64,000 nucleotides of DNA. Source: an uncultured Candidatus Saccharibacteria bacterium (GTDB lineage Bacteria; Patescibacteriota; Doudnabacteria; UBA920). The DNA is taken from contig CAZQMO010000003.1 in assembly GCA_964594755.1 (NCBI GenBank), positions 2,516 to 66,515 of the forward strand. Direction: 5' to 3'. This document shows positions 3,098 through 35,459 of this stretch, piece after piece; within the stretch, counting starts at the first letter, position 1; the number at the start of each line of letters is the position of its first letter. A program made the position numbers and the translations under genes. The notes below the pieces were generated by a model that searched no databases, was not told the DNA's origin, and was given only the letters and a program-made list of their open reading frames with translations.

Positions 3098-3634
3098 TTA
3101 ACTTTTATCTCGATTACTTTTAATTATTTGGATCAATTTGTTTTGCTCTGATTGCTGCTGTTGCAAAAGGTAATTTAGTTCCTTAATCTTAATCGCAGTT
3201 TCCTTGAGATCTTTTGGGGCATGTTGTTGTTGCTCGATCGGCACAGGGATTGTATCTTCAAAAAAATCTTTACCTTCCTTATGATAAACATACACCTTAG
3301 CCCCAAATAAATATTGAATAAAGTTCCCAGCGCTTGCATAAAGGGGGCGGCCATTAAGCTTCCCAAACACTAATGCCAACGCTGGTACACCAGTCACTGC
3401 CCCCACTGCTATGGTTATTGGTAAATTTTTACTAATCGTGTAAATCACGAAAGTAAAAGCACCTGCCCCGAACACGATTGCAAACTGTTTAAAAGTTAAG
3501 CCTGCAATAATCTTATCTTCGACATCAGTAAATTGTGGGACTGGAAACTGCATATAAATAGTGTGTAAGAAGTAGAAGGTAATTTGTAATAAGTTAAATT
3601 CCGCCTGTTTGTAAGCATTACTTATTAGTTTCAA
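3098..3634 (-). CDS. small membrane protein (VirB3/PrgI-like position and topology)
   Basis: 178 aa with two predicted TM helices (FAIVFGAGAFTFVIYTI and ITIAVGAVTGVPALALVFG), then a Q-rich C-terminus. Sits just upstream of virB4, as VirB3-like proteins do. Confidence 0.45.
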   Translation of the reverse strand: MKLISNAYKQAEFNLLQITFYFLHTIYMQFPVPQFTDVEDKIIAGLTFKQFAIVFGAGAFTFVIYTISKNLPITIAVGAVTGVPALALVFGKLNGRPLYASAGNFIQYLFGAKVYVYHKEGKDFFEDTIPVPIEQQQHAPKDLKETAIKIKELNYLLQQQQSEQNKLIQIIKSNRDKS

Positions 3635-3663
3635 CCTTCTACTATCTAATCAATTATACCAAA

Positions 3664-4464
3664 TTAAACCCGATTAATTTTTAAAGCTTGCAATAAATCG
3701 GCCACAAACTCAAACTCCTCTTGGGTGAGCGGTAAATTATCACCACTTGCTCCACTTAACAACAATTTTCCGTAATTTAAATAGTCTTGATATAACGGGC
3801 TTTCTTCAAAGTGACTTAAAACATTAAAGTAACCTTCCTTTTCTGCTATAACGCTGATTAGTTTAAAAAAGTTAGCACGATTTTGATGATGCAGAGCCTC
3901 CGCAGTCAAATGCTGAATATCACCTAGCTCTAACAGATTAAATCCTTTGGCAGCAGTGTCGGCGGAGGGTATAGGGTTCGAGTTGGTCAGAGGTTTGGCA
4001 CTAGGATCTGAAACTGGTGAAAACGGTTTAGCAGCTGGTTGAGATGTTATTTGCAAAGACGGTTCTCCAGTTTTTTGCTGGGTCTGCATGGGAGTTAACT
4101 TCGAGTTGCGGGCAAAATCACGTTCTGGCCCAGGTGGCATCATTGGCTTTGCCGGCTTTGGAGCCAATCGTGGATCACTCATCCGACTAGGAAGATTACT
4201 AATGTGTCCAAGTGATGGCGTTGGAGCTTCCATGATTGGCGAAGGTTTTGGAGTTGATGGTGGTTCTGGAGTTGTTGGGAGTGGCACCCCGCCTGATGAT
4301 TGCAGAATCGCTTCTAACTCAGAAATTTGTTTATCATTCATTAAGCCAATTAATGACAGCCACTCAGCTTTTTCCTGCGCGTTCAAAATGCTGGCGCTTT
4401 GTACCAGTTGGGTAATCTTTTGCATTTTGACCGGATCTAACATATTTGGTTCTCCCCTCCCCAT
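3664..4464 (-). CDS. proline-rich hypothetical protein
   Basis: 266 aa with a central low-complexity P/S/T-rich region (PTTPEPPSTPKPSPIMEAPTPS) in the T4SS-like cluster. Confidence 0.45.
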   Translation of the reverse strand: MGRGEPNMLDPVKMQKITQLVQSASILNAQEKAEWLSLIGLMNDKQISELEAILQSSGGVPLPTTPEPPSTPKPSPIMEAPTPSLGHISNLPSRMSDPRLAPKPAKPMMPPGPERDFARNSKLTPMQTQQKTGEPSLQITSQPAAKPFSPVSDPSAKPLTNSNPIPSADTAAKGFNLLELGDIQHLTAEALHHQNRANFFKLISVIAEKEGYFNVLSHFEESPLYQDYLNYGKLLLSGASGDNLPLTQEEFEFVADLLQALKINRV

Positions 4465-25748: not shown

Positions 25749-26186
25749 ATGAAATCTTTAGCCCAGAACAAGCGAGCCAAATTCGACTACGACATCAAAG
25801 ATACTTTTGATGCCGGTTTAATATTGGAAGGGCGAGAGGTTAAATCGGCAAAGGAAGGCAATATCTCGCTAGCCGGAAGCTATGTGAAAGTGTCAGCTAC
25901 TGGCGCTAGCTTAGTGAATGCCCACATTGGCCCTTATAAGTATGCGCCACAAGAAGGTTATGAACCAACCCAAAGCCGCAAGTTGTTGTTGAATAAGCGC
26001 GAACTTAATCAACTCCTAGGTAAAGAAAAAGGCACCGTAATTATTCCGCTAGAAATTTTCATTGGTCCTCGCAATCTGGTAAAGCTAAAAATCGGAGTTG
26101 GCCGCGGCCGCAAGAAAACCGACAAGCGCGAGTACATTAAAGAGCGCGATACCAAGCGCGAAGCCCGTAAGGCCACCGACCGATAA
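25749..26186 (+). CDS. smpB: SsrA-binding protein SmpB
   Basis: 145 aa. N-terminus LAQNKRAKFDY and a basic C-terminal tail (GRGRKKTDKREYIKERD) typical of SmpB. Confidence 0.9.
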   Translation: MKSLAQNKRAKFDYDIKDTFDAGLILEGREVKSAKEGNISLAGSYVKVSATGASLVNAHIGPYKYAPQEGYEPTQSRKLLLNKRELNQLLGKEKGTVIIPLEIFIGPRNLVKLKIGVGRGRKKTDKREYIKERDTKREARKATDR

Positions 26187-27621: not shown

Positions 27622-28004
27622 CGGGGATGCCGGATTTTGACAGAACTTTGACATCATTTCATATACAAGCCGAGCCAGCTTGCAAGCTCGTAAATCTTAC
27701 AAGCATTCATACGTGCTAACGCATGGAACAAGGTCGTAGCAGCATTTTCTGCTGACTACGCACCTGCTGTAGCCTAACTTAGGTGAAAGCGCAGTCCTGT
27801 TGTCTACTCCGGCCACAGAGTCACTGCTTTATTAGGAGTTATAGCTGCGTCGTTTGATTAACGCGACTCAGCCGAATAGTTGTTAATCAACCTTTAGTTT
27901 AGTTGTCCGTTGTTAGACTAAAGGCACTTAAACGGACTAAGCTTGTGACCAATGAGATGGTGAACCAGTTTTGGACGCGGGTTTAACTCCCGCCATCTCC
28001 ACCA
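27622..28004 (+). ncRNA. ssrA: transfer-messenger RNA (tmRNA)
   Basis: 5' GGGGATG pairs with 3' CATCTCC-A-CCA, including G3:U70. The 3' end GGACGCGGGTTTAACTCCCGCCATCTCCACCA is nearly identical to E. coli tmRNA. An internal tag-like frame ends ...AAFSADYAPAVA-TAA. Flanked by a consensus promoter and a terminator. Confidence 0.85.
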
Positions 28005-28061: not shown

Positions 28062-28550
28062 TTGAATAAAATAATAACAATTAATACAAAACATATGGAT
28101 TGTATATTTTGCAAAATTGTTTCAGGTGAATCTTCATCGTTTAAAGTTTGGGAGGACGAAAAACACGTAGCGTTTCTATCAATCTTTCCCAATACTGTTG
28201 GTGTAACAGTTGTTATTCCTAAACAACATTACCCGAGTTACATTTTTGATCTACCTGAAGATGTAATGATTGACTTAATCAAAGCTGCAAAGAAAGTAGC
28301 TAAAATTTTAGATACAAAACTAGATGATGTAGGTAGGACAGCAATGGTGTTTGAAGGATTTGGAGTTGACCATATACACGCCAAACTGTTTCCTATGCAT
28401 GGCACAAAGATAGATAATTGGAAACCAGTCAACTCTAATTTAAAAAAATACTTCGATAAATATGAAGGATATATTTCTTCCCACGATGCTGACCAAGCTG
28501 ATGAAAAAGAATTAGAAAAGCTAGCCAAAACTCTATTCGAATTAAAGTAA
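28062..28550 (+). CDS. HIT-family (histidine triad) hydrolase
   Basis: 162 aa. N-terminal CIFCKI and a histidine triad region (GVDHIHAKLFP). Confidence 0.75.
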   Translation: MNKIITINTKHMDCIFCKIVSGESSSFKVWEDEKHVAFLSIFPNTVGVTVVIPKQHYPSYIFDLPEDVMIDLIKAAKKVAKILDTKLDDVGRTAMVFEGFGVDHIHAKLFPMHGTKIDNWKPVNSNLKKYFDKYEGYISSHDADQADEKELEKLAKTLFELK

Positions 28551-28552
28551 GG

Positions 28553-29143
28553 TTATAACTTTCTAGCAATTATATCGAACACATGCCAATGCTTTGCTGA
28601 GCCATCAGCTGTTTTACCATCAAATTCCTTTTCTTCGAAATGAATCATATCCATATCCCCTAGGATAGCCATTGCAGTTTCTTTGGTAACAAAAGTTAGG
28701 TTAGGATTGTCTTTCCATCCATCACGGTCACCAAAAAACTGACCGCAAAAAATTCCATGTTCAACTAAAGAAGATTTAACTTTTTCAAATACTTTTTCGA
28801 AATCACTTTGGGGGGTGAAAGGTAATGAATATATTGCGGCAGCCACATCAAACTCATCCTTTGGAAAATCAAAATTCGAGAACGAACTAATAAAATAATG
28901 TAATTTATCTGATTCCACCTTGCTAGCTGCTTCTGCTATCACCTCTTCTTTATCAATGATAGTAGTTTCAAAACCTTTAGATAGCAAGAACAGAGTATCC
29001 TTCAAAGTTGCACCGCCGCCGATATCGATAGCCTTACCTATTGTTTCTACGTACTCCAAAGCTTTAATCAGCAAAGGGGATGGAGGATAATTTTTAGTGT
29101 TTTCGTAATAATTATCCCAGTTGTTTATAGATTTATTATTCAT
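28553..29143 (-). CDS. SAM-dependent methyltransferase (class I)
   Basis: 196 aa with a glycine-rich SAM motif (KAIDIGGGATLKDTLFLLSKGFETTIIDKE). It is the last gene of the minus-strand peptide operon. Confidence 0.7.
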   Translation of the reverse strand: MNNKSINNWDNYYENTKNYPPSPLLIKALEYVETIGKAIDIGGGATLKDTLFLLSKGFETTIIDKEEVIAEAASKVESDKLHYFISSFSNFDFPKDEFDVAAAIYSLPFTPQSDFEKVFEKVKSSLVEHGIFCGQFFGDRDGWKDNPNLTFVTKETAMAILGDMDMIHFEEKEFDGKTADGSAKHWHVFDIIARKL

Positions 29144-29211
29144 ATATTAAGTATATATTAAAATTGGGCGCAGCACATATTGAATGTACCACGCCCGCTA
29201 GCTTTTCAGCT

Positions 29212-29295
29212 TCATGATGTGCAGCCCTGACAGGCAGCGCACTTAGCTGCGCAAAGCTTCTCAGCAATGCGCCTGATTCGCTCTTTACGAGTCAT
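29212..29295 (-). CDS. 27-aa Cys-rich peptide (candidate precursor peptide or metal-binding peptide), unannotated
   Basis: Minus-strand ATG at 29295, preceded by a strong SD (AAGGAGGTG) 7 nt upstream. Translation: MTRKERIRRIAEKLCAAKCAACQGCTS*. It sits 23 nt after the oxygenase-like gene and is followed by a weak hairpin (GGGCG...CGCCC plus AATTTTAA) before the methyltransferase. Confidence 0.45.
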   Translation of the reverse strand: MTRKERIRRIAEKLCAAKCAACQGCTS

Positions 29296-29318
29296 TTGCT
29301 TTCACCTCCTTTTATGAT

Positions 29319-29996
29319 TTATTTAACGTATTCTATGAACGCCCTTACCTGAAAACGTTTGCTTGTCTCCTTCAGTTTATCACGACCGTGGAGCATAACA
29401 AAGTTATCGAACCAAATTGCCTCACCAGCTTTCAGTTTTAGAGAAATATGATTCCCCCTCTCCCGTTTGTCCAGAAGTACCTGATTAAATCGCTCGACTG
29501 ATTTAGCCTGACGATCCTCAAGTTTTTCTAGATTTGCGAGAGTAAAAGCTGGTAGCCAATAAACATGAGGGCGTTGATTGTCATTCACGCTCAATACTGG
29601 AAGGGTTTCTTCACTCCTAGGTAAAGGCACATTTACTTGTTTTAGCGCCTCAACTTCAGAATAAGATAATTCTTTCAGAATTTCGCGAGTGTCAACCAAA
29701 AGGTTTTCACCGCCATCATCGTCAGCGTGTTCACAGAACAACCCGACGACATTCACCAAAGGATAATCTGTGTGAAATGGGACTTCCTCTGGCAGATGAG
29801 AGTAACCAGTGAATTTTTCAACCGTATCCCTTGGCTTAAGAAAGATTTCTCTAGTATGTGTAACGCGGCCGAGTTGGTTACAAATTGCCAGATAATTCTC
29901 TCGAGTATGGACATTCTCAACAACAAATCCTTGGGAATCAAGCCTGTTAAGAATATCCGCAACATTAATAAATCTCTCAACTTGTAAATCGCTCAT
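29319..29996 (-). CDS. Fe(II)/2-oxoglutarate-dependent oxygenase-like protein (TauD/TfdA-like)
   Basis: 225 aa. HTD (an HxD facial-triad motif) near residue 75 and a distal HGRDK...R near the C-terminus. The assignment rests on motifs only. Confidence 0.5.
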   Translation of the reverse strand: MSDLQVERFINVADILNRLDSQGFVVENVHTRENYLAICNQLGRVTHTREIFLKPRDTVEKFTGYSHLPEEVPFHTDYPLVNVVGLFCEHADDDGGENLLVDTREILKELSYSEVEALKQVNVPLPRSEETLPVLSVNDNQRPHVYWLPAFTLANLEKLEDRQAKSVERFNQVLLDKRERGNHISLKLKAGEAIWFDNFVMLHGRDKLKETSKRFQVRAFIEYVK

Positions 29997-30520
29997 TATG
30001 TCAACGCCTCACATGGTTGATCAAAAAGCCTTGGCTTCTGTAACTGAGTAAGTATCTCGGCCGAGTACTTCTCAGGATATTCTTCATACCATCGCACAAC
30101 AGTATCTTCACCGACCACGTCCCAAATGTAGTTCAACTGAAGTTCGGTTTCATCAACACCGATTGGTTGAAAATCTGGTGTTGCTGGTGAGTGATGTATG
30201 AAGCTCCCTAAATATTTTTTGCAGAATTCTTCGTAGTCTCTAGTATGCAATATGAAGGTGTGCCAATACTCATCGATCACCACCATACCGCTATGAACCA
30301 CCAACATCTGTGGTATACCTTCGACTTTGTCTCTTCTGTCTTGTTTGAGCCTGGCGTTCAACCAAAGCCATCTGTGCGCCTCAGAAGCAATCTCTTGAGC
30401 TTCCTGGTGCGTTACGTTGTACAGCACTCTGAATTTGTTCAGAACCGTGTTATTCTGGTAGCCTAATGTCTTTTCAAGGCTAAGCATATTTACCTGACCT
30501 CCTTTAATTTGCTTAGCCAT
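29996..30520 (-). CDS. hypothetical protein (first gene of the peptide operon)
   Basis: 174 aa. Its stop overlaps the start of the oxygenase-like gene (ATGA). No recognised motif. Confidence 0.55.
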   Translation of the reverse strand: MAKQIKGGQVNMLSLEKTLGYQNNTVLNKFRVLYNVTHQEAQEIASEAHRWLWLNARLKQDRRDKVEGIPQMLVVHSGMVVIDEYWHTFILHTRDYEEFCKKYLGSFIHHSPATPDFQPIGVDETELQLNYIWDVVGEDTVVRWYEEYPEKYSAEILTQLQKPRLFDQPCEALT

Positions 30521-30796
30521 ATCGGCTAATTTAGGCCCATTATATCTATTTTATTAAGTTTTGTCAAGAGTATTATTACGTTTAAATACCTGTATGTGAT
30601 ATCTCTAACCTTATACTGTTTATTAAATATTGGTATTCTCTAATGTCTGGAGCATACCATAACTCCTCATCACCCATTCATATATTGGGTTTAAAGTTTT
30701 TTGCACTATGTCCACCAAAATAAATACCATTGTTATATTCTTTTTAGCTAAGGATGTAAGAATGGTATTTATTTTTTAATCAATTGGAGGATGCTA

Positions 30797-31012
30797 ATGA
30801 AAGATCAAAACTTTGTCGGGCCGCAGCGCACTTGGCGATGCGAATCTGGCCAGCATGAATCAATTATCCCTGACGGTTCGGTCTTCGCTTGGGCTTGGGC
30901 TGTTCAACAAGAACAAGGCCCAGTCGGGCCGCTAATAATCCCTGATTATAGCTGTGAACTCTGCCACCCTCAAAGATATAAACTTAGGTTATCGGATGAG
31001 GAAATCGCCTGA
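30797..31012 (+). CDS. small Cys/His-containing hypothetical protein
   Basis: ATG at 30797 preceded by GGAGG. Translation: MKDQNFVGPQRTWRCESGQH...CELCHP... (71 aa). It is a GC-rich island inside a 750-nt AT-rich intergenic region. The track's start at 30791 is 2 codons longer. Confidence 0.4.
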   Translation: MKDQNFVGPQRTWRCESGQHESIIPDGSVFAWAWAVQQEQGPVGPLIIPDYSCELCHPQRYKLRLSDEEIA

Positions 31013-31094
31013 CCCTGCGATAAAAGGGTCATTTTTATTTGCTCAAAATTAATGAATATCCTAGCAATTAGCGCTAAAATGATGTTTTATTCTA

Positions 31095-32597: not shown

Positions 32598-33608
32598 ATG
32601 CGTTATAGTAACTATATGAAGTATATTATCCTAATTTTTATAGCTATCTCTATGATAGCAGTGGGCTGCAGCCAGCAATCTACCGACAGTAGCCAAACAG
32701 CGAACCCAGATCAGCAAATTAAAACCGAGGGCGGTGAAATTGTGAACCCCACTTCCTTGCAAGCTTTGATGCAAAAACAATTTGACGGCCGAGAGTTTCA
32801 GATTGGCCAAGTGCAGTCTGAAACCGCTACCTACACTCGATACTACATTACATACAAAAGCGGCGAGCTTACTATCTCGGGAATCATGAACGTACCGAAG
32901 GGCACCGGTCCCTTCCCAGTCGTAATCATGAATCACGGGTACATTGATCCTGCCATCTACACCAATGGTCGCGGCTTGCGTCGCGAACAAGATTACTTCG
33001 CTGCTCGTGGTTACATTGTAATCCATCCTGACTATCGCAATCACGCACAGTCATCCAAGGACGACAATGTAGAAGGCGACATCCGAATCGGATACATAGA
33101 GGATGTGATTAATACTATCTATGCAATCAAGTCAGCAAACCTGACTTACGCTGACACCAACCGCATAGCTATGATAGGACACTCCATGGGCGGTGGCATT
33201 GCTCAAGCTGTCATGGTGGTACAGCCAGAATTGGTAGACGCTTACATGCTGTATGCTCCAGTGTCCTCCGACGTGCGCGAAAGCTACTACCGCTGGACAA
33301 AAAGCCGACCAGAAGCAGTTGAGCAAATCAAACAGCAGCATGGAGATCCGGAAACCAATCCAGAATTTTGGGACAACATGTCGCCGGTCAACTTTTTTGA
33401 TCGCATTAAGTCCCCTGTGATGATTAACCATGGCACCAATGATGCAGACGTACCTCTAGAGTGGAGCTACCGCACGCGCGATGCTCTAGAGGCCGCAGGC
33501 AAAGAAGTGATTCTGCACGAGTACCCTGGCGAAGGGCATGAGTTTGGTCCTGCCTGGGGCACGGTCATGCAGCGCACAATCAATTTCTTCAATCAGAACC
33601 TTAAATAA
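32598..33608 (+). CDS. alpha/beta-hydrolase lipoprotein (S9 peptidase / dienelactone-hydrolase-like)
   Basis: 336 aa. Lipobox (ISMIAVGC), nucleophile elbow (IGHSMGGG), and Asp and His placed appropriately downstream. Confidence 0.75.
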   Translation: MRYSNYMKYIILIFIAISMIAVGCSQQSTDSSQTANPDQQIKTEGGEIVNPTSLQALMQKQFDGREFQIGQVQSETATYTRYYITYKSGELTISGIMNVPKGTGPFPVVIMNHGYIDPAIYTNGRGLRREQDYFAARGYIVIHPDYRNHAQSSKDDNVEGDIRIGYIEDVINTIYAIKSANLTYADTNRIAMIGHSMGGGIAQAVMVVQPELVDAYMLYAPVSSDVRESYYRWTKSRPEAVEQIKQQHGDPETNPEFWDNMSPVNFFDRIKSPVMINHGTNDADVPLEWSYRTRDALEAAGKEVILHEYPGEGHEFGPAWGTVMQRTINFFNQNLK

Positions 33609-34094: not shown

Positions 34095-35459
34095 CTAGAC
34101 CAAAGCAACTAAAGCACCCACTGCCGCGACAGTCATCAACGCCACAATCCCGTAACCAAACCAGCTTAAACCTTTCCGATTGACCCAACGACCCATCAGC
34201 ACTTTATCGCCACTCAGCTTGACGATGAAATACAAAATAATTGGAGCAACAATACCATTCAGTACAGCAGAATAAACTAAAGCCTGTATTGGATTAATGC
34301 CAATGAAATTAATTAACATTCCAAGCAACATCGCAAAGATAATTACTCCGTAGAAAGCATGAGCATGACTTAACCCACGAGACAAGCCAGACCGCCAACT
34401 AAAACTTTCTGCTAAAGCGTAAGCGGCACTCCCCGCTAATACCGGCACAGCTAATAAACCAGTTCCAATAATTCCAAGGGCGAACAGAATATACGCTTGC
34501 TCACCAGCCAGTGGCCTTAATGCCAAAGCAGCTTGCTCGGCTGATTCAATTGCCATACCCTGAGGGAACAAAACCGCAGCACATGTCACAATAATGAAAA
34601 ACATCACTAAGTTGGACAAAAACATTCCCACTACAACATCAAAGCGCATTCTGCGAACTTCTTTTTTGGTCACTATTTGATGACGAAGTTTAGGAGATAG
34701 CTTACCGGCCAACTTTCTAGATTCAACTTCCTGAGAAGTTTGCCAAAAGAACAAATAAGGCGAAATGGTCGTACCGAGTACAGCACATATCATGATGATA
34801 ATACTTTTTGACCAAGTGATGTTTGGCCAGATGGTTTGCGTCCAAATCTCTCGCCAAGGCAAGTTATCTAAGCTAAGCGCTGTGGCGACGTATAGCAACA
34901 ACACTAAAGTTAGATACTTTAAGAATCTCGCGTAATTAGCATAAGAAATAAAAATCTGCATACCCAAACTAACAATTGTGAATAGCAGGAGGAAAGTTAA
35001 AAAGTTAAACGAAGGGAAAATTAATTGTGCGGCTGCGGCCATTGCCCCAAGATCAGCACCAATGTTAAAAGTATTTGTAACAAAAATAATAGCCGTTAAT
35101 ACATAGAGTACACTAGCTCGATATTGAGTGCGAATATTAGCTGCCAAACCTTGACCAGTTGCTAAACCAATTCGGGCGCACATTTCCTGCACAGCCACCA
35201 TAAGCGGGAAGGTGAGCGGTGCTAGCCAGAGCAATGAATAGCCGAATAAAGCTCCTGCCTGAGAATAGGTCGCAATTCCTGAAGGGTCATCATCTGAAGC
35301 GCCGGTGGTAATCCCTGGGCCTAACGAATACCAATAATCCTCAGCCTCGCGCAAAGGCTTGTTAATACTGTGCAAGGCATGCTGGCTTTCTAACATAGCA
35401 GTTTCAAGCGCCTTAGCAGGAGCCTCGGCAACCTCGGTAATTATTTCTTTTGCATTCAT
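34095..35459 (-). CDS. mntH: Nramp-family divalent metal (Mn2+/Fe2+) transporter
   Basis: 454 aa, about 11 TM helices. Nramp signature region GPGITTGASDDDPSGIATYSQAGA. Confidence 0.85.
   Translation of the reverse strand: MNAKEIITEVAEAPAKALETAMLESQHALHSINKPLREAEDYWYSLGPGITTGASDDDPSGIATYSQAGALFGYSLLWLAPLTFPLMVAVQEMCARIGLATGQGLAANIRTQYRASVLYVLTAIIFVTNTFNIGADLGAMAAAAQLIFPSFNFLTFLLLFTIVSLGMQIFISYANYARFLKYLTLVLLLYVATALSLDNLPWREIWTQTIWPNITWSKSIIIMICAVLGTTISPYLFFWQTSQEVESRKLAGKLSPKLRHQIVTKKEVRRMRFDVVVGMFLSNLVMFFIIVTCAAVLFPQGMAIESAEQAALALRPLAGEQAYILFALGIIGTGLLAVPVLAGSAAYALAESFSWRSGLSRGLSHAHAFYGVIIFAMLLGMLINFIGINPIQALVYSAVLNGIVAPIILYFIVKLSGDKVLMGRWVNRKGLSWFGYGIVALMTVAAVGALVALV

Follow-up and report, generated by a model that had tools for sequence, protein, structure and literature searches.

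On the minus strand of the window analysed here (the whole stretch of DNA, 64,000 nucleotides, from an uncultured Candidatus Saccharibacteria bacterium), a 27-codon reading frame rich in cysteine lies between the genes for an all-helical protein and a short oxygenase on one side and a methyltransferase gene on the other. The locus raises the questions of whether so short a frame is a gene and, if it is, whether its product is a precursor peptide that the neighbouring proteins modify or a peptide with some other role, such as binding a metal, acting as a toxin, carrying a signal or controlling the gene behind it. An earlier note on this DNA had proposed a RiPP-like operon, and comparative genomics supports that reading, with no chemistry shown.

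Layout of the Locus

The features, in their order along the minus strand, are:

30539..30567, minus strand: sigma-70-type promoter-like stretch (TTGACA, 17 nt, TATAAT; 12/12 consensus), upstream of the PF27765 gene
29996..30487, minus strand: gene for an all-alpha PF27765 ("UCP032817-like") protein, 163 aa; the ORF runs to 30520, and the start is probably M12
29319..29996, minus strand: gene for a short TauD/TfdA-family Fe(II)/2-oxoglutarate oxygenase, 225 aa (PF02668)
29303..29311, minus strand: Shine-Dalgarno (SD) sequence of the peptide gene, AAGGAGGTG, 7 nt 5′ of the start codon, read directly
29212..29295, minus strand: precursor-like peptide gene, MTRKERIRRIAEKLCAAKCAACQGCTS, 27 codons; leader approximately residues 2-14, core C19-x2-C22-x-G-C25-x-S
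29156..29196, minus strand: intrinsic-terminator-like hairpin with AATTTTAATA (stem 29166-29196), between the peptide and methyltransferase genes
28553..29143, minus strand: gene for a class I SAM methyltransferase, TehB-like subfamily, 196 aa (Methyltransf_25/11)

All four minus-strand ORFs claimed for the locus are present (29996..30520, 29319..29996, 29212..29295 and 28553..29143), the last of them, the methyltransferase ORF, lying beyond the span 29212-30520 to which the earlier note had assigned the group. The first ORF had been read as a 174-aa protein; it most likely starts at M12 instead, judging from an ATG at 30487 with an SD sequence, AAGGAGGT, at 30497-30504 and from homologues that are all 163-166 aa, and its product would then have 163 aa. 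This SD matches in strength the one before the peptide gene, which had been described as the strongest in the region. The PF27765 and TauD genes overlap, as had been noted, by 1 nt (TAATG) in the window and not by ATGA; at orthologous loci the overlap is 4 nt, with ATGA at some of them. Tight coupling had been claimed for all four genes and holds for this overlapping pair, while the methyltransferase gene, which lies behind a terminator and is kept by relatives without the rest, is more loosely attached. The stretch at 30539..30567 is called promoter-like here on the strength of its consensus match only, transcription not having been shown. A related stretch precedes the cassette at one other locus (L004), and another lies immediately before the methyltransferase gene at a locus (L170) where that gene stands alone and the cassette is absent. 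Promoter, SD and the conserved terminator behind the peptide gene are all consistent with an operon layout.

No exporter or leader peptidase was found in the four-gene cassette, and none is conserved at the Patescibacteria orthologues inspected; an S9 peptidase gene 2 kb from the cassette is not conserved at other Patescibacteria loci. Likewise, LanB/C/M, radical SAM, YcaO and DUF692 proteins were not found among the cassette proteins or the scanned neighbours (25.7-35.5 kb). An Rfam scan of the intergenic region returned no known RNA, a nearby tmRNA being the sole match, and integration of an island at the tmRNA gene was rejected, no direct repeat of the 3′ end of that gene having been found. 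A defence or phage origin was also rejected, the PF27765 and TauD proteins having no PADLOC or PHROGs match; the methyltransferase has weak generic methyltransferase-domain matches only (PADLOC mad2, E 5e-4; PHROG tRNA methyltransferase, E 1e-5).

A Conserved 27-Codon Gene

Judged by comparison among related genomes, the 27-codon ORF is a genuine gene whose amino-acid sequence is under selection, because its length, SD and hairpin are kept and substitutions fall mostly at third positions. A search for the peptide motif at the same locus in related genomes, which had been proposed as a check, recovered 11 distinct orthologues, each of exactly 27 codons; ten of these ORFs were compared codon by codon, the eleventh (L093) having been recovered later. 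GGAGG lies 6-9 nt 5′ of the start in all orthologous ORFs compared. Differences between orthologues number 277, 239 and 643 at the first, second and third codon positions, and differing codon pairs are synonymous in 437 cases and non-synonymous in 357, vs. 68 and about 750 for the same tally in the two other frames. Non-conservation of the small ORF would have refuted the RiPP-like reading; the frame is in fact kept at every syntenic Patescibacteria locus with the oxygenase. Public gene calls omit the peptide at 6/6 syntenic loci inspected, just as it had been reported missing from the ORF track of the window.

Orthologues share the core C19-x2-C22-x-G-C25-x-[ST]-stop. A basic helical N-terminal half followed by C-x3-C-x2-C-x2-C had been described, of which the CxxC core stands and the C-x3-C part does not, C15 being variable among orthologues (C/Y/S/M/H). 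A 33-nt likeness of the peptide gene to positions 30823-30855, considered as a decayed second copy, was treated as chance: an 11-mer seed is expected by chance, and substitutions there favour a plus-strand ORF of 73 aa.

The peptide ORF ends 16 nt before the hairpin. This structure, previously called weak, has a 13-bp stem with seven GC pairs and AATTTT directly after it, and the region folds at -27.6 kcal/mol (z = -4.7). Hairpin and T-run occur at the same position in 12/12 loci compared, among which nine pairs have changed on both sides. The peptide could conceivably be a cis-regulatory leader, with ribosome stalling at Cys codons controlling terminator read-through into the methyltransferase gene as a cysteine-sensing attenuator. 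The short ORF has three Cys codons, precedes a conserved terminator and lies directly upstream of the methyltransferase gene, and TauD-family enzymes are classically tied to sulfur supply. Moreover, ORF, hairpin and methyltransferase gene survive as a unit in the closest relative (L174), where a DUF2268-like gene stands in place of the PF27765 and TauD genes and homology to the window starts exactly at the peptide SD; the peptide can thus persist without those two proteins, at least for a while. However, a conserved antiterminator pairing was not found at the loci compared, and the entire peptide, N-terminus included, shows amino-acid conservation accompanied by synonymous changes. In other phyla the leader motif lies on either side of the PF27765 gene without a methyltransferase of the window's type, and at two loci (L015, L016) the peptide is encoded 5′ of the PF27765 gene with the methyltransferase absent. 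We give the attenuator hardly any credence.

A Peptide Family Linked to PF27765

Cluster representatives of PF27765 number 6,555 and come from many phyla. The peptides beside these genes share a helical leader motif, K-x2-L-I-x2-L-L-x-K-N, followed by a short CxxC-containing core, and the leader of the window peptide, R-I-x2-I-A-x2-L, is a local version of it; a leader HMM places the window peptide in this PF27765-linked family. Within 900 bp of a PF27765 gene, and on its strand, the HMM has 53 matches scoring 9 bits or more (50 loci); the remainder of the 2.2 Mb of strand searched contains only three, a density difference of approximately 170-fold. A laxer search found a leader-type peptide at 64 of 101 PF27765 loci; at least 23 of the peptide-bearing loci had been left out of HMM building. 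Additional leader-type peptides beside PF27765 genes were spotted by eye. In 52 PF27765-peptide pairs from many phyla, conservation is 90% or higher at I7, C22 and C25. The cores are hypervariable, ranging from about 6 to 60 residues with varying numbers of cysteines and CxxC retained, in contrast to the conserved N-terminal motif. This combination, a constant leader followed by a highly variable core, is what RiPP precursors typically show.

PF27765 clusters in other phyla contain C39-peptidase ABC exporters, HlyD, MatE, S9 peptidases, P450s, glycosyltransferases (GT), methyltransferases and TauD enzymes. The earlier note would have been refuted had the neighbours proved to be unlinked housekeeping enzymes; PF27765 genes instead lie beside leader/Cys-core peptides in many phyla, together with accessory genes of RiPP or bacteriocin type. 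PF27765 is also fused to TauD (P0199, L105/L106) and to GT4-like domains (L037, L064, P0144, P0149), each fusion adjoining a peptide wherever DNA was available, and separate TauD-then-PF27765 gene pairs recur. These fusions argue that the enzymes are aimed at the peptide.

The same neighbourhoods bear on whether peptide and PF27765 protein form a bacteriocin and immunity pair, in which an unmodified Cys-rich toxin would be matched by a cytoplasmic, all-helical immunity protein. Class II bacteriocin loci likewise have a small peptide gene beside one for a small cytoplasmic helical protein, and GG-type leaders with C39-ABC/HlyD exporters, a class II feature, occur at many PF27765 loci in other phyla, including some distant family members. 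The window peptide, however, has no GG site and its cassette no exporter. Unlike class II immunity proteins, PF27765 is conserved with the leader and not with the variable core, has polar residues invariant across phyla, and is fused to GT and TauD enzymes. We consider such a pair quite unlikely.

A pheromone-like peptide signal with PF27765 as its intracellular sensor is very unlikely in our estimation. It would account for a helical protein beside a small peptide, and at 13 Fulvivirga-type loci a large sensor histidine kinase is the sole conserved neighbour. On the other hand, no DNA-binding or output domain was found in the PF27765 protein, which is fused to enzymes instead, and the window peptide lacks a secretion signal and its cassette an exporter.

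The PF27765 Protein

The first protein of the locus, which the earlier note had left unassigned, is central to the system; its PF27765 match is recorded (precomputed) for an identical protein (P0001) and for all close homologues. Structure prediction, which had been suggested as a way to look for a RiPP recognition element (RRE) or a cupin fold, gave neither for this protein: the model has eight helices and no beta-strands (pLDDT 91.7). The protein had no Pfam match, to an RRE or otherwise, at E up to 1 in a Pfam copy without the PF27765 model, and a PDB fold search with the predicted structure returned no structural relative. A D-E-x-W-H ... C ... H-H cluster is conserved in the protein, which may bind metal and act on cysteines itself; whether it is an adaptor or a catalyst is undecided. 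Many PF27765 loci have a peptide without a recognisable enzyme beside it, which leaves open whether their peptides are unmodified or PF27765 is itself the enzyme. A WHxH..L motif, which we take to be similar to DUF1399/GRDP, and the NCBI name of one distant homologue ("glycine-rich domain-containing protein") pointed to another family; given no Pfam DUF1399 match even at E up to 5, that link was rejected and no relationship to GRDP is claimed.

The Oxygenase and the Methyltransferase

The second protein had been read as a TauD/TfdA-like oxygenase with an HxD...H...R site, which the data bear out: PF02668 scores 53.7 bits (cut-off 27; E 3.6e-14), and across 29 relatives H75, H203 and R214 are invariant and D77 nearly so. 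Its closest solved relatives in a profile search are a PIsnB/PvcB-type TauD-family desaturase, PDB 7tcl (E 1e-17) (PMC9467999), and gamma-butyrobetaine dioxygenase (E 1e-13). These share the iron/2-oxoglutarate site with the 225-aa oxygenase and act on small molecules, with lengths of 281-388 aa, whereas the cassette type is short (216-235 aa) and, next to a peptide gene, is either coupled with a PF27765 domain or fused to one.

Those small-molecule substrates are one reason to consider that the peptide is an unmodified metal ligand, binding Zn, Cu or Fe via CxxCxxC with PF27765 as a stable partner, perhaps sharing a metal site at its Asp/His cluster, while the oxygenase and methyltransferase act on small molecules. 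The family-wide CxxC, the D/H/H/C cluster of the PF27765 protein, the many loci with a peptide and no obvious enzyme, and the lack of an exporter or protease in the cassette are all compatible with this. However, hypervariable core length and cysteine number beside a conserved N-terminal motif are the reverse of what would be required of a structural metal site; the GG motifs, C39 exporters and S9 peptidases of many clusters imply cleavage and export; and the GT and TauD fusions speak for peptide-directed enzymes. We regard a purely metal-binding peptide as unlikely, though not negligible.

The identification of the fourth protein as a class I SAM methyltransferase is upheld by a Methyltransf_25 score of 31 bits (cut-off 27) and conservation of the SAM motif AIDIGGGA, together with D64. 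Its gene follows the peptide gene in 10/10 TauD-type Patescibacteria loci, and its subfamily (C-terminal DG..KHWH..ARK) adjoins PF27765 genes in Kofleriaceae, Bacteroidota and Hymenobacter, being their neighbour across three phyla. Homologues far outnumber the cassette and also occur without it. It is probably a tailoring enzyme less firmly linked to the cassette, since its gene is located past the terminator and is retained by close relatives that lack the other genes. The flanking enzymes had all been offered as plausible tailoring enzymes; for the methyltransferase the linkage is weaker than that proposal assumed.

Comparison With Known Peptide Systems

PqqA/PqqD/PqqE and MftA/MftB/MftC are peptide-derived cofactor pathways. 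Like the cassette, they have a very short precursor (20-30 aa) in a small operon, often with overlapping genes, and need no exporter. In both, the peptide is bound by a small protein dedicated to it and passed to an adjacently encoded enzyme, a role to which the one proposed for PF27765 can be likened. The binding protein there is a PqqD-like winged-helix RRE, whereas the partner protein in the cassette is all-alpha and of unknown fold. Those pathways use a radical SAM enzyme, whereas the cassette has a TauD-type oxygenase and no radical SAM gene.

MNIO (DUF692) systems, including methanobactin (MbnABC) and bufferins, use a partner protein that binds the leader, and their products bind metals. 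They resemble PF27765 systems in short precursors, a conserved leader, key Cys residues and a partner protein, but differ from the cassette in catalytic fold and in unrelated partner proteins; no DUF692 was found in the scanned window proteins or the scanned neighbours of related loci.

A TOMM-like extension at one locus (L003; downstream ThiF, a 479-aa protein and a nitroreductase) was set aside, the 479-aa protein having no YcaO match and the arrangement being confined to that locus.

In the SmaA/SmaO/SmaX aminomalonate RiPP system, a GG-leader precursor is modified by an Fe(II)/2-oxoglutarate oxygenase that acts together with an adjacently encoded all-alpha metalloprotein, and the Sma cluster includes a peptidase-containing ABC transporter (PCAT) (PMC12186529). 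Many PF27765 clusters likewise include a PCAT.

A Proposed RiPP-Type Cassette

On balance, we favour a compact cassette for a RiPP-type peptide, in which the PF27765 protein would engage the leader and present the core to the oxygenase; this is inferred from sequence and gene context, and no modification has been observed. Of the features generally expected of RiPP loci, a short precursor with a conserved leader and variable core is present (11 orthologues; 64 loci), as are co-encoded, linked modifying enzymes (intact TauD residues, fusions and a recurring methyltransferase subfamily); a leader peptidase or exporter, common though not obligatory, is missing from the window cassette. In the proposed mechanism, the peptide's N-terminal helix, which is basic and amphipathic, would dock as the leader on the PF27765 protein, which would present the C-x2-C-x-G-C-x-[ST] core for oxidative tailoring, and the methyltransferase would probably modify the core as well. 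The hairpin should yield more precursor transcript than methyltransferase transcript. Lacking exporter and leader peptidase, the cassette may make a product that acts intracellularly or is used full-length.

PF27765 apparently marks a large and undescribed family of candidate modified-peptide clusters; a literature search, including Patescibacteria RiPPs and helical-bundle leader binding, found nothing on the family. A broader proposal, put forward only tentatively, is that PF27765 defines a widespread, undescribed RiPP class of thousands of clusters, from Patescibacteria to myxobacteria, cyanobacteria, Bacteroidota, Pseudoalteromonas, Legionella and Streptomyces. The domain would be a metal-binding, leader-dependent enzyme or docking domain of new fold that works on CxxC and recruits interchangeable TauD, GT, methyltransferase or P450 enzymes. 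The Patescibacteria form would be a minimal, export-free version with a 27-residue peptide that could be cofactor-like or metal-handling inside the cells of these ultra-small bacteria.

Comprising three or four genes and a substrate of 27 residues, the system is small enough to be tested directly by co-expression and mass spectrometry. If the reading is correct, PF27765 would allow thousands of peptide clusters to be mined that are unannotated and whose precursors escape gene callers, and it would add a leader-engaging domain unlike the PqqD-like RRE and a short, peptide-dedicated oxygenase of TauD type. Patescibacteria, despite their reduced genomes, would then also be seen to invest in a modified peptide.

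The cassette and its surroundings

The window carries on its minus strand a cassette of four genes and a hairpin, as follows.

Features of the cassette
30567..30539, minus strand: sigma-70 promoter consensus, 12/12 positions by sequence match
29996..30520, minus strand: first ORF, PF27765 protein; gene most likely 29996..30487 (homologue starts and SD)
29319..29996, minus strand: second ORF, short TauD/TfdA-family oxygenase (PF02668, 53.7 bits)
29212..29295, minus strand: third ORF, 27-codon peptide gene (conserved reading frame)
29196..29166, minus strand: 13-bp hairpin, then AATTTT, between the peptide and methyltransferase genes
28553..29143, minus strand: fourth ORF, class I SAM methyltransferase (MT; Pfam match)

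The first ORF had no match in local copies of Pfam and NCBIfam; PF27765 ('UCP032817-like') is recorded for an identical protein in a public collection. Its homologues are all 163-166 aa long and start at the second Met, which in the window (30487) is preceded by AAGGAGGT, and the shorter gene is therefore preferred. The earlier note was right that the first two genes overlap, although by one base (TAATG) and not by ATGA. The peptide gene has AAGGAGGTG seven bases 5' of its ATG, and the hairpin region folds with -27.6 kcal/mol (z = -4.7). Rfam found no RNA family in the cassette region besides the nearby tmRNA. The closest homologues are from Patescibacteria (Doudnabacteria, Andersenbacteria, and Colwellbacteria).

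A tmRNA gene (tag ANAWNKVVAAFSADYAPAVA; 27623-28004, plus strand), smpB (25749-26186, plus strand), and a HIT-family gene (28062-28550, plus strand) adjoin the cassette; a search for an att-like repeat of the tmRNA 3' end found none. In three related genomes (window 34095-35459, minus strand; L007 9706-11079; L174 170-1540) an Nramp metal transporter is encoded no more than a few kb away from the cassette or its MT, which may be plain synteny. Two kb from the cassette, 32598-33608 (plus strand) encodes a protein with a lipoprotein-like N-terminus that is either an S9-family peptidase or an alpha/beta hydrolase. Similar S9 hydrolases (E 1e-12 to 3e-7) are found within PF27765 clusters in Bacteroidota and in Janthinobacterium (L056, L018, L021, L073). 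The gene is not conserved where other Patescibacteria carry the cassette.

The small ORF is a gene

At every oxygenase-bearing Patescibacteria locus, the oxygenase and MT genes are separated by about 200 nt that always contain a 27-codon ORF, without any public gene call. There are eleven distinct peptide sequences in all.

Peptides encoded between the oxygenase and MT genes, by locus
Window: MTRKERIRRIAEKLCAAKCAACQGCTS
L002: MTRKERIKRIVKKLYASKCAACQGCLS
L003: VTRKERIKRIVKKLSASDCSACQGCTS
L004: MTRQQRIKKIAARLMASTCAACQGCTS
L007: MTRKERIKRIAEKLCAANCAACQGCIS
L009: MTREERIKQIAAKLHSSNCAACQGCTS
L010: MTRQERIKRIAEMLCATNCAACQGCQS
L011: MTRQERIKRIAEKLYSAKCASCQGCTT
L012: MTREQRIETIAATLHESTCAACQGCTS
L017: MTRQERIKYIAENLYAAKCAACTGCTS
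L093: MTRQERIERIADKLCAANCSACQGCTS

T2, R3, R6, I7, I10, L14, C19, C22, G24, and C25 are invariant, the last residue is S or T, and position 15 varies (C/Y/S/M/H). Among ten of the eleven ORFs (L093 was left out), differences by codon position numbered 277/239/643, and differing codon pairs were 437 synonymous vs 357 non-synonymous in frame, compared with 68 vs about 750 in the two other frames. GGAGG precedes the start at all loci, and the stop is followed at all loci by the hairpin and a T-run, with nine hairpin pairs changed on both sides. The earlier note, which proposed a RiPP-like operon, held that it would be refuted if the small ORF were not conserved in syntenic loci; the frame, its coding substitution pattern, the SD, and the hairpin are all kept, and this ground for refutation falls away. 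A chance ORF is excluded by the substitution data.

The L012 cassette, of typical Patescibacteria type, is on a contig labelled 'uncultured Gammaproteobacteria' (CAZOCX010000004.1) that is probably mis-binned. Within the window, 29234-29266 and 30823-30855 are 73% identical over 33 nt, the minus-strand frame of the second reading GQIRIAKCAAA. This similarity is probably due to chance, to judge from its seed, an 11-mer expected by chance in the span, and from a substitution pattern favoring an ORF on the opposite strand.

Leader-type peptides accompany PF27765 genes across phyla

A scan of one genome per species gave 196 loci encoding a relative of the 163-aa protein, in Bacteroidota (Saprospiraceae, Fulvivirga, Tenacibaculum), Pseudoalteromonas luteoviolacea, myxobacteria, Bdellovibrionales/Oligoflexales, cyanobacteria, Streptomyces ipomoeae, Legionella, Rickettsiaceae, and 'Candidatus Uabimicrobium'. 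Cluster representatives found in an exhaustive profile search number 6,555 with an E-value cut-off of 1e-3 and 1,254 with one of 1e-10. In these loci the PF27765 gene has a small ORF beside it, usually on its own strand and no more than 150 bp away. These ORFs share an N-terminal motif (KKEALIKELLAKKLEGG, SKAQLIDSLIKKNVKGG, NKKALIAQLLKNNVV, MKATLIERLIQKNVV, MKQQLIQKIVRKKI, QKDQVIARILAQLKAG), followed by a short, variable, Cys-containing part (PPPFCLGGCS, ACICCHVPV, RFCGCVICL, IACIACIGEGDFPG, GACQGCES); certain cores extend to about 60 residues with 10-14 Cys. An HMM built from 19 leaders (cut-off at least 9 bits) matched 53 times within 900 bp of a PF27765 gene on its strand, in 50 loci, at least 23 of them outside the training set, and only three times elsewhere in 2.2 Mb of strand. 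With laxer pairing, 64 of 101 loci were positive. Tandem precursors occur in L086 (4184-4771, three with identical cores) and L020 (5538-6794, three different Cys-rich precursors), and two or three tandem PF27765 domains occur within single proteins (P0065, P0076, P0100).

Across 52 aligned protein-peptide pairs, residues I7, C22, and C25 of the window peptide were at least 90% conserved, the two cysteines forming a C-Q-G-C motif. The window peptide is thus a family member in minimal form; its leader is TRKERIRRIAEKL and its core ends C-x2-C-x-G-C-x-S. The small ORF was also considered as a Cys-sensing attenuator for the MT; no conserved antiterminator was found, and such a device fails to explain why the leader motif is conserved in different phyla, before or after PF27765 genes and without this MT.

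Proposed role of the PF27765 protein

In other phyla, PF27765 genes recurrently neighbor C39-peptidase ABC exporters, HlyD, MatE, S9 peptidases, P450, glycosyltransferase-like proteins, methyltransferases, and TauD-type oxygenases. Such neighbors are the usual accessory genes of RiPP and bacteriocin clusters. In L037, L064, P0144, and P0149, PF27765 is joined to a GT4-like glycosyltransferase at the latter's C-terminus, and the L037 and L064 fusion genes each lie directly 3' of a leader-type peptide gene. PF27765 is fused to TauD in P0199, in the order of the window genes, and in L105/L106, preceded there by ...AKKVIEEVSEKYNV...ECNQCHGNCDDCGYDR. Separate TauD-then-PF27765 gene pairs recur in distant relatives.

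Because of these fusions, the gene overlap, and the conservation of PF27765 with the leader and not the core, we propose that the PF27765 protein engages the leader and couples the peptide to whichever enzyme is present. The same features speak against its being an immunity protein or a receptor. The peptide might otherwise be an unmodified metal-binding partner, a bacteriocin paired with its immunity protein, or a signal paired with its receptor; all three are disfavored by the PF27765-enzyme fusions and by a conserved leader with a variable core, and none is excluded.

Beyond coupling, the protein may be the class-defining catalyst in its own right and act on CxxC, TauD, GT, MT, and P450 then being accessories, since many loci hold only the peptide and the PF27765 protein. 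D72, W75, H76, L80, T82, Y85, and H99 are invariant and E73, C89, and H98 nearly so; D72 and H76 are one helical turn apart. The D-E-x-W-H ... C ... H-H pattern looks like a metal site, by inference only.

Oxygenase and methyltransferase

In 29 relatives of the oxygenase, H75, H203, and R214 never vary and D77 almost never does. Its closest solved relatives are 7tcl (E 1e-17), from work on Fe/2OG enzymes forming vinyl isonitrile and isocyanoacrylate (PMC9467999), and gamma-butyrobetaine dioxygenase. Hydroxylation or desaturation/decarboxylation is conceivable, with the attacked residue undetermined.

The MT is of a TehB-like subfamily recognisable by its C-terminus (DG..KHWH..ARK). Members of this subfamily adjoin PF27765 genes in Kofleriaceae, Bacteroidota, and Hymenobacter, and this shared neighborhood supports a functional link. 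The subfamily is much more numerous than the cassette and is also found without it. Divergent from one seemingly 'solo' MT homologue, L172 encodes a 169-aa ORF (3400-3909, minus strand) with the motif DVIWHTHIEDTARYRADCSAYFGYFLDH that belongs distantly to the PF27765 superfamily (E 9e-6); public annotation places a gene on the other strand here. In one Doudnabacteria genome (L003 7562-12672), the genes after the cassette encode an aromatic amino-acid lyase, ThiF, an unknown protein of 479 aa without a YcaO match, and a nitroreductase-like protein, and may form a separate pathway.

Presence and absence of the cassette

L170 is syntenic with L004, with an MT 85% identical at the DNA level, and lacks (at 3883-3995) the PF27765 gene, TauD, and peptide of L004 5390-6838; what is left is 19 nt from the left arm of the hairpin, immediately 5' of the MT start codon. 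The closest syntenic relative of the window, L174 (GCA_964597895.1), has flanking genes about 82% identical and keeps the peptide gene (83/84 nt identical) together with its SD, the MT, and the hairpin, which shows compensatory changes. In place of window 29310-30707 (TauD, PF27765 gene, promoter), L174 3377-4835 has a DUF2268-like ORF and a small ORF. The two sequences become homologous precisely at the SD of the peptide gene, and 30708-31036 on the other side is 97% identical. Replaced between near-identical arms, the PF27765-TauD pair looks like an exchangeable module. The peptide can thus persist without the pair, at least for a while; this is the chief reservation about a strict three-enzyme pathway.

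Features within the 97%-identical stretch
30791-31012, plus strand: 73-aa ORF with three Cys
31010-31031: terminator-like hairpin after the 73-aa ORF

Three of the five substitutions in the 73-aa ORF are synonymous. The ORF had no Pfam match and no homologue in any other locus retrieved.

Relation to known systems

The cassette resembles the Pqq and mycofactocin pathways in its tiny precursor, dedicated binding protein, and enzyme; MNIO systems in its Cys-containing core and partner protein; and SmaO/SmaX, where an Fe/2OG enzyme works with an all-alpha metalloprotein on a GG-leader peptide (PMC12186529). In contrast to all of these, their defining proteins are absent here. NCBIfam has no model for the PF27765 protein, the Pfam name denotes only an uncharacterised protein, and our literature search found nothing on the family. 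On comparative genomics alone, and with chemistry and product unknown, the cassette is a candidate for a new RiPP class defined by a new protein.
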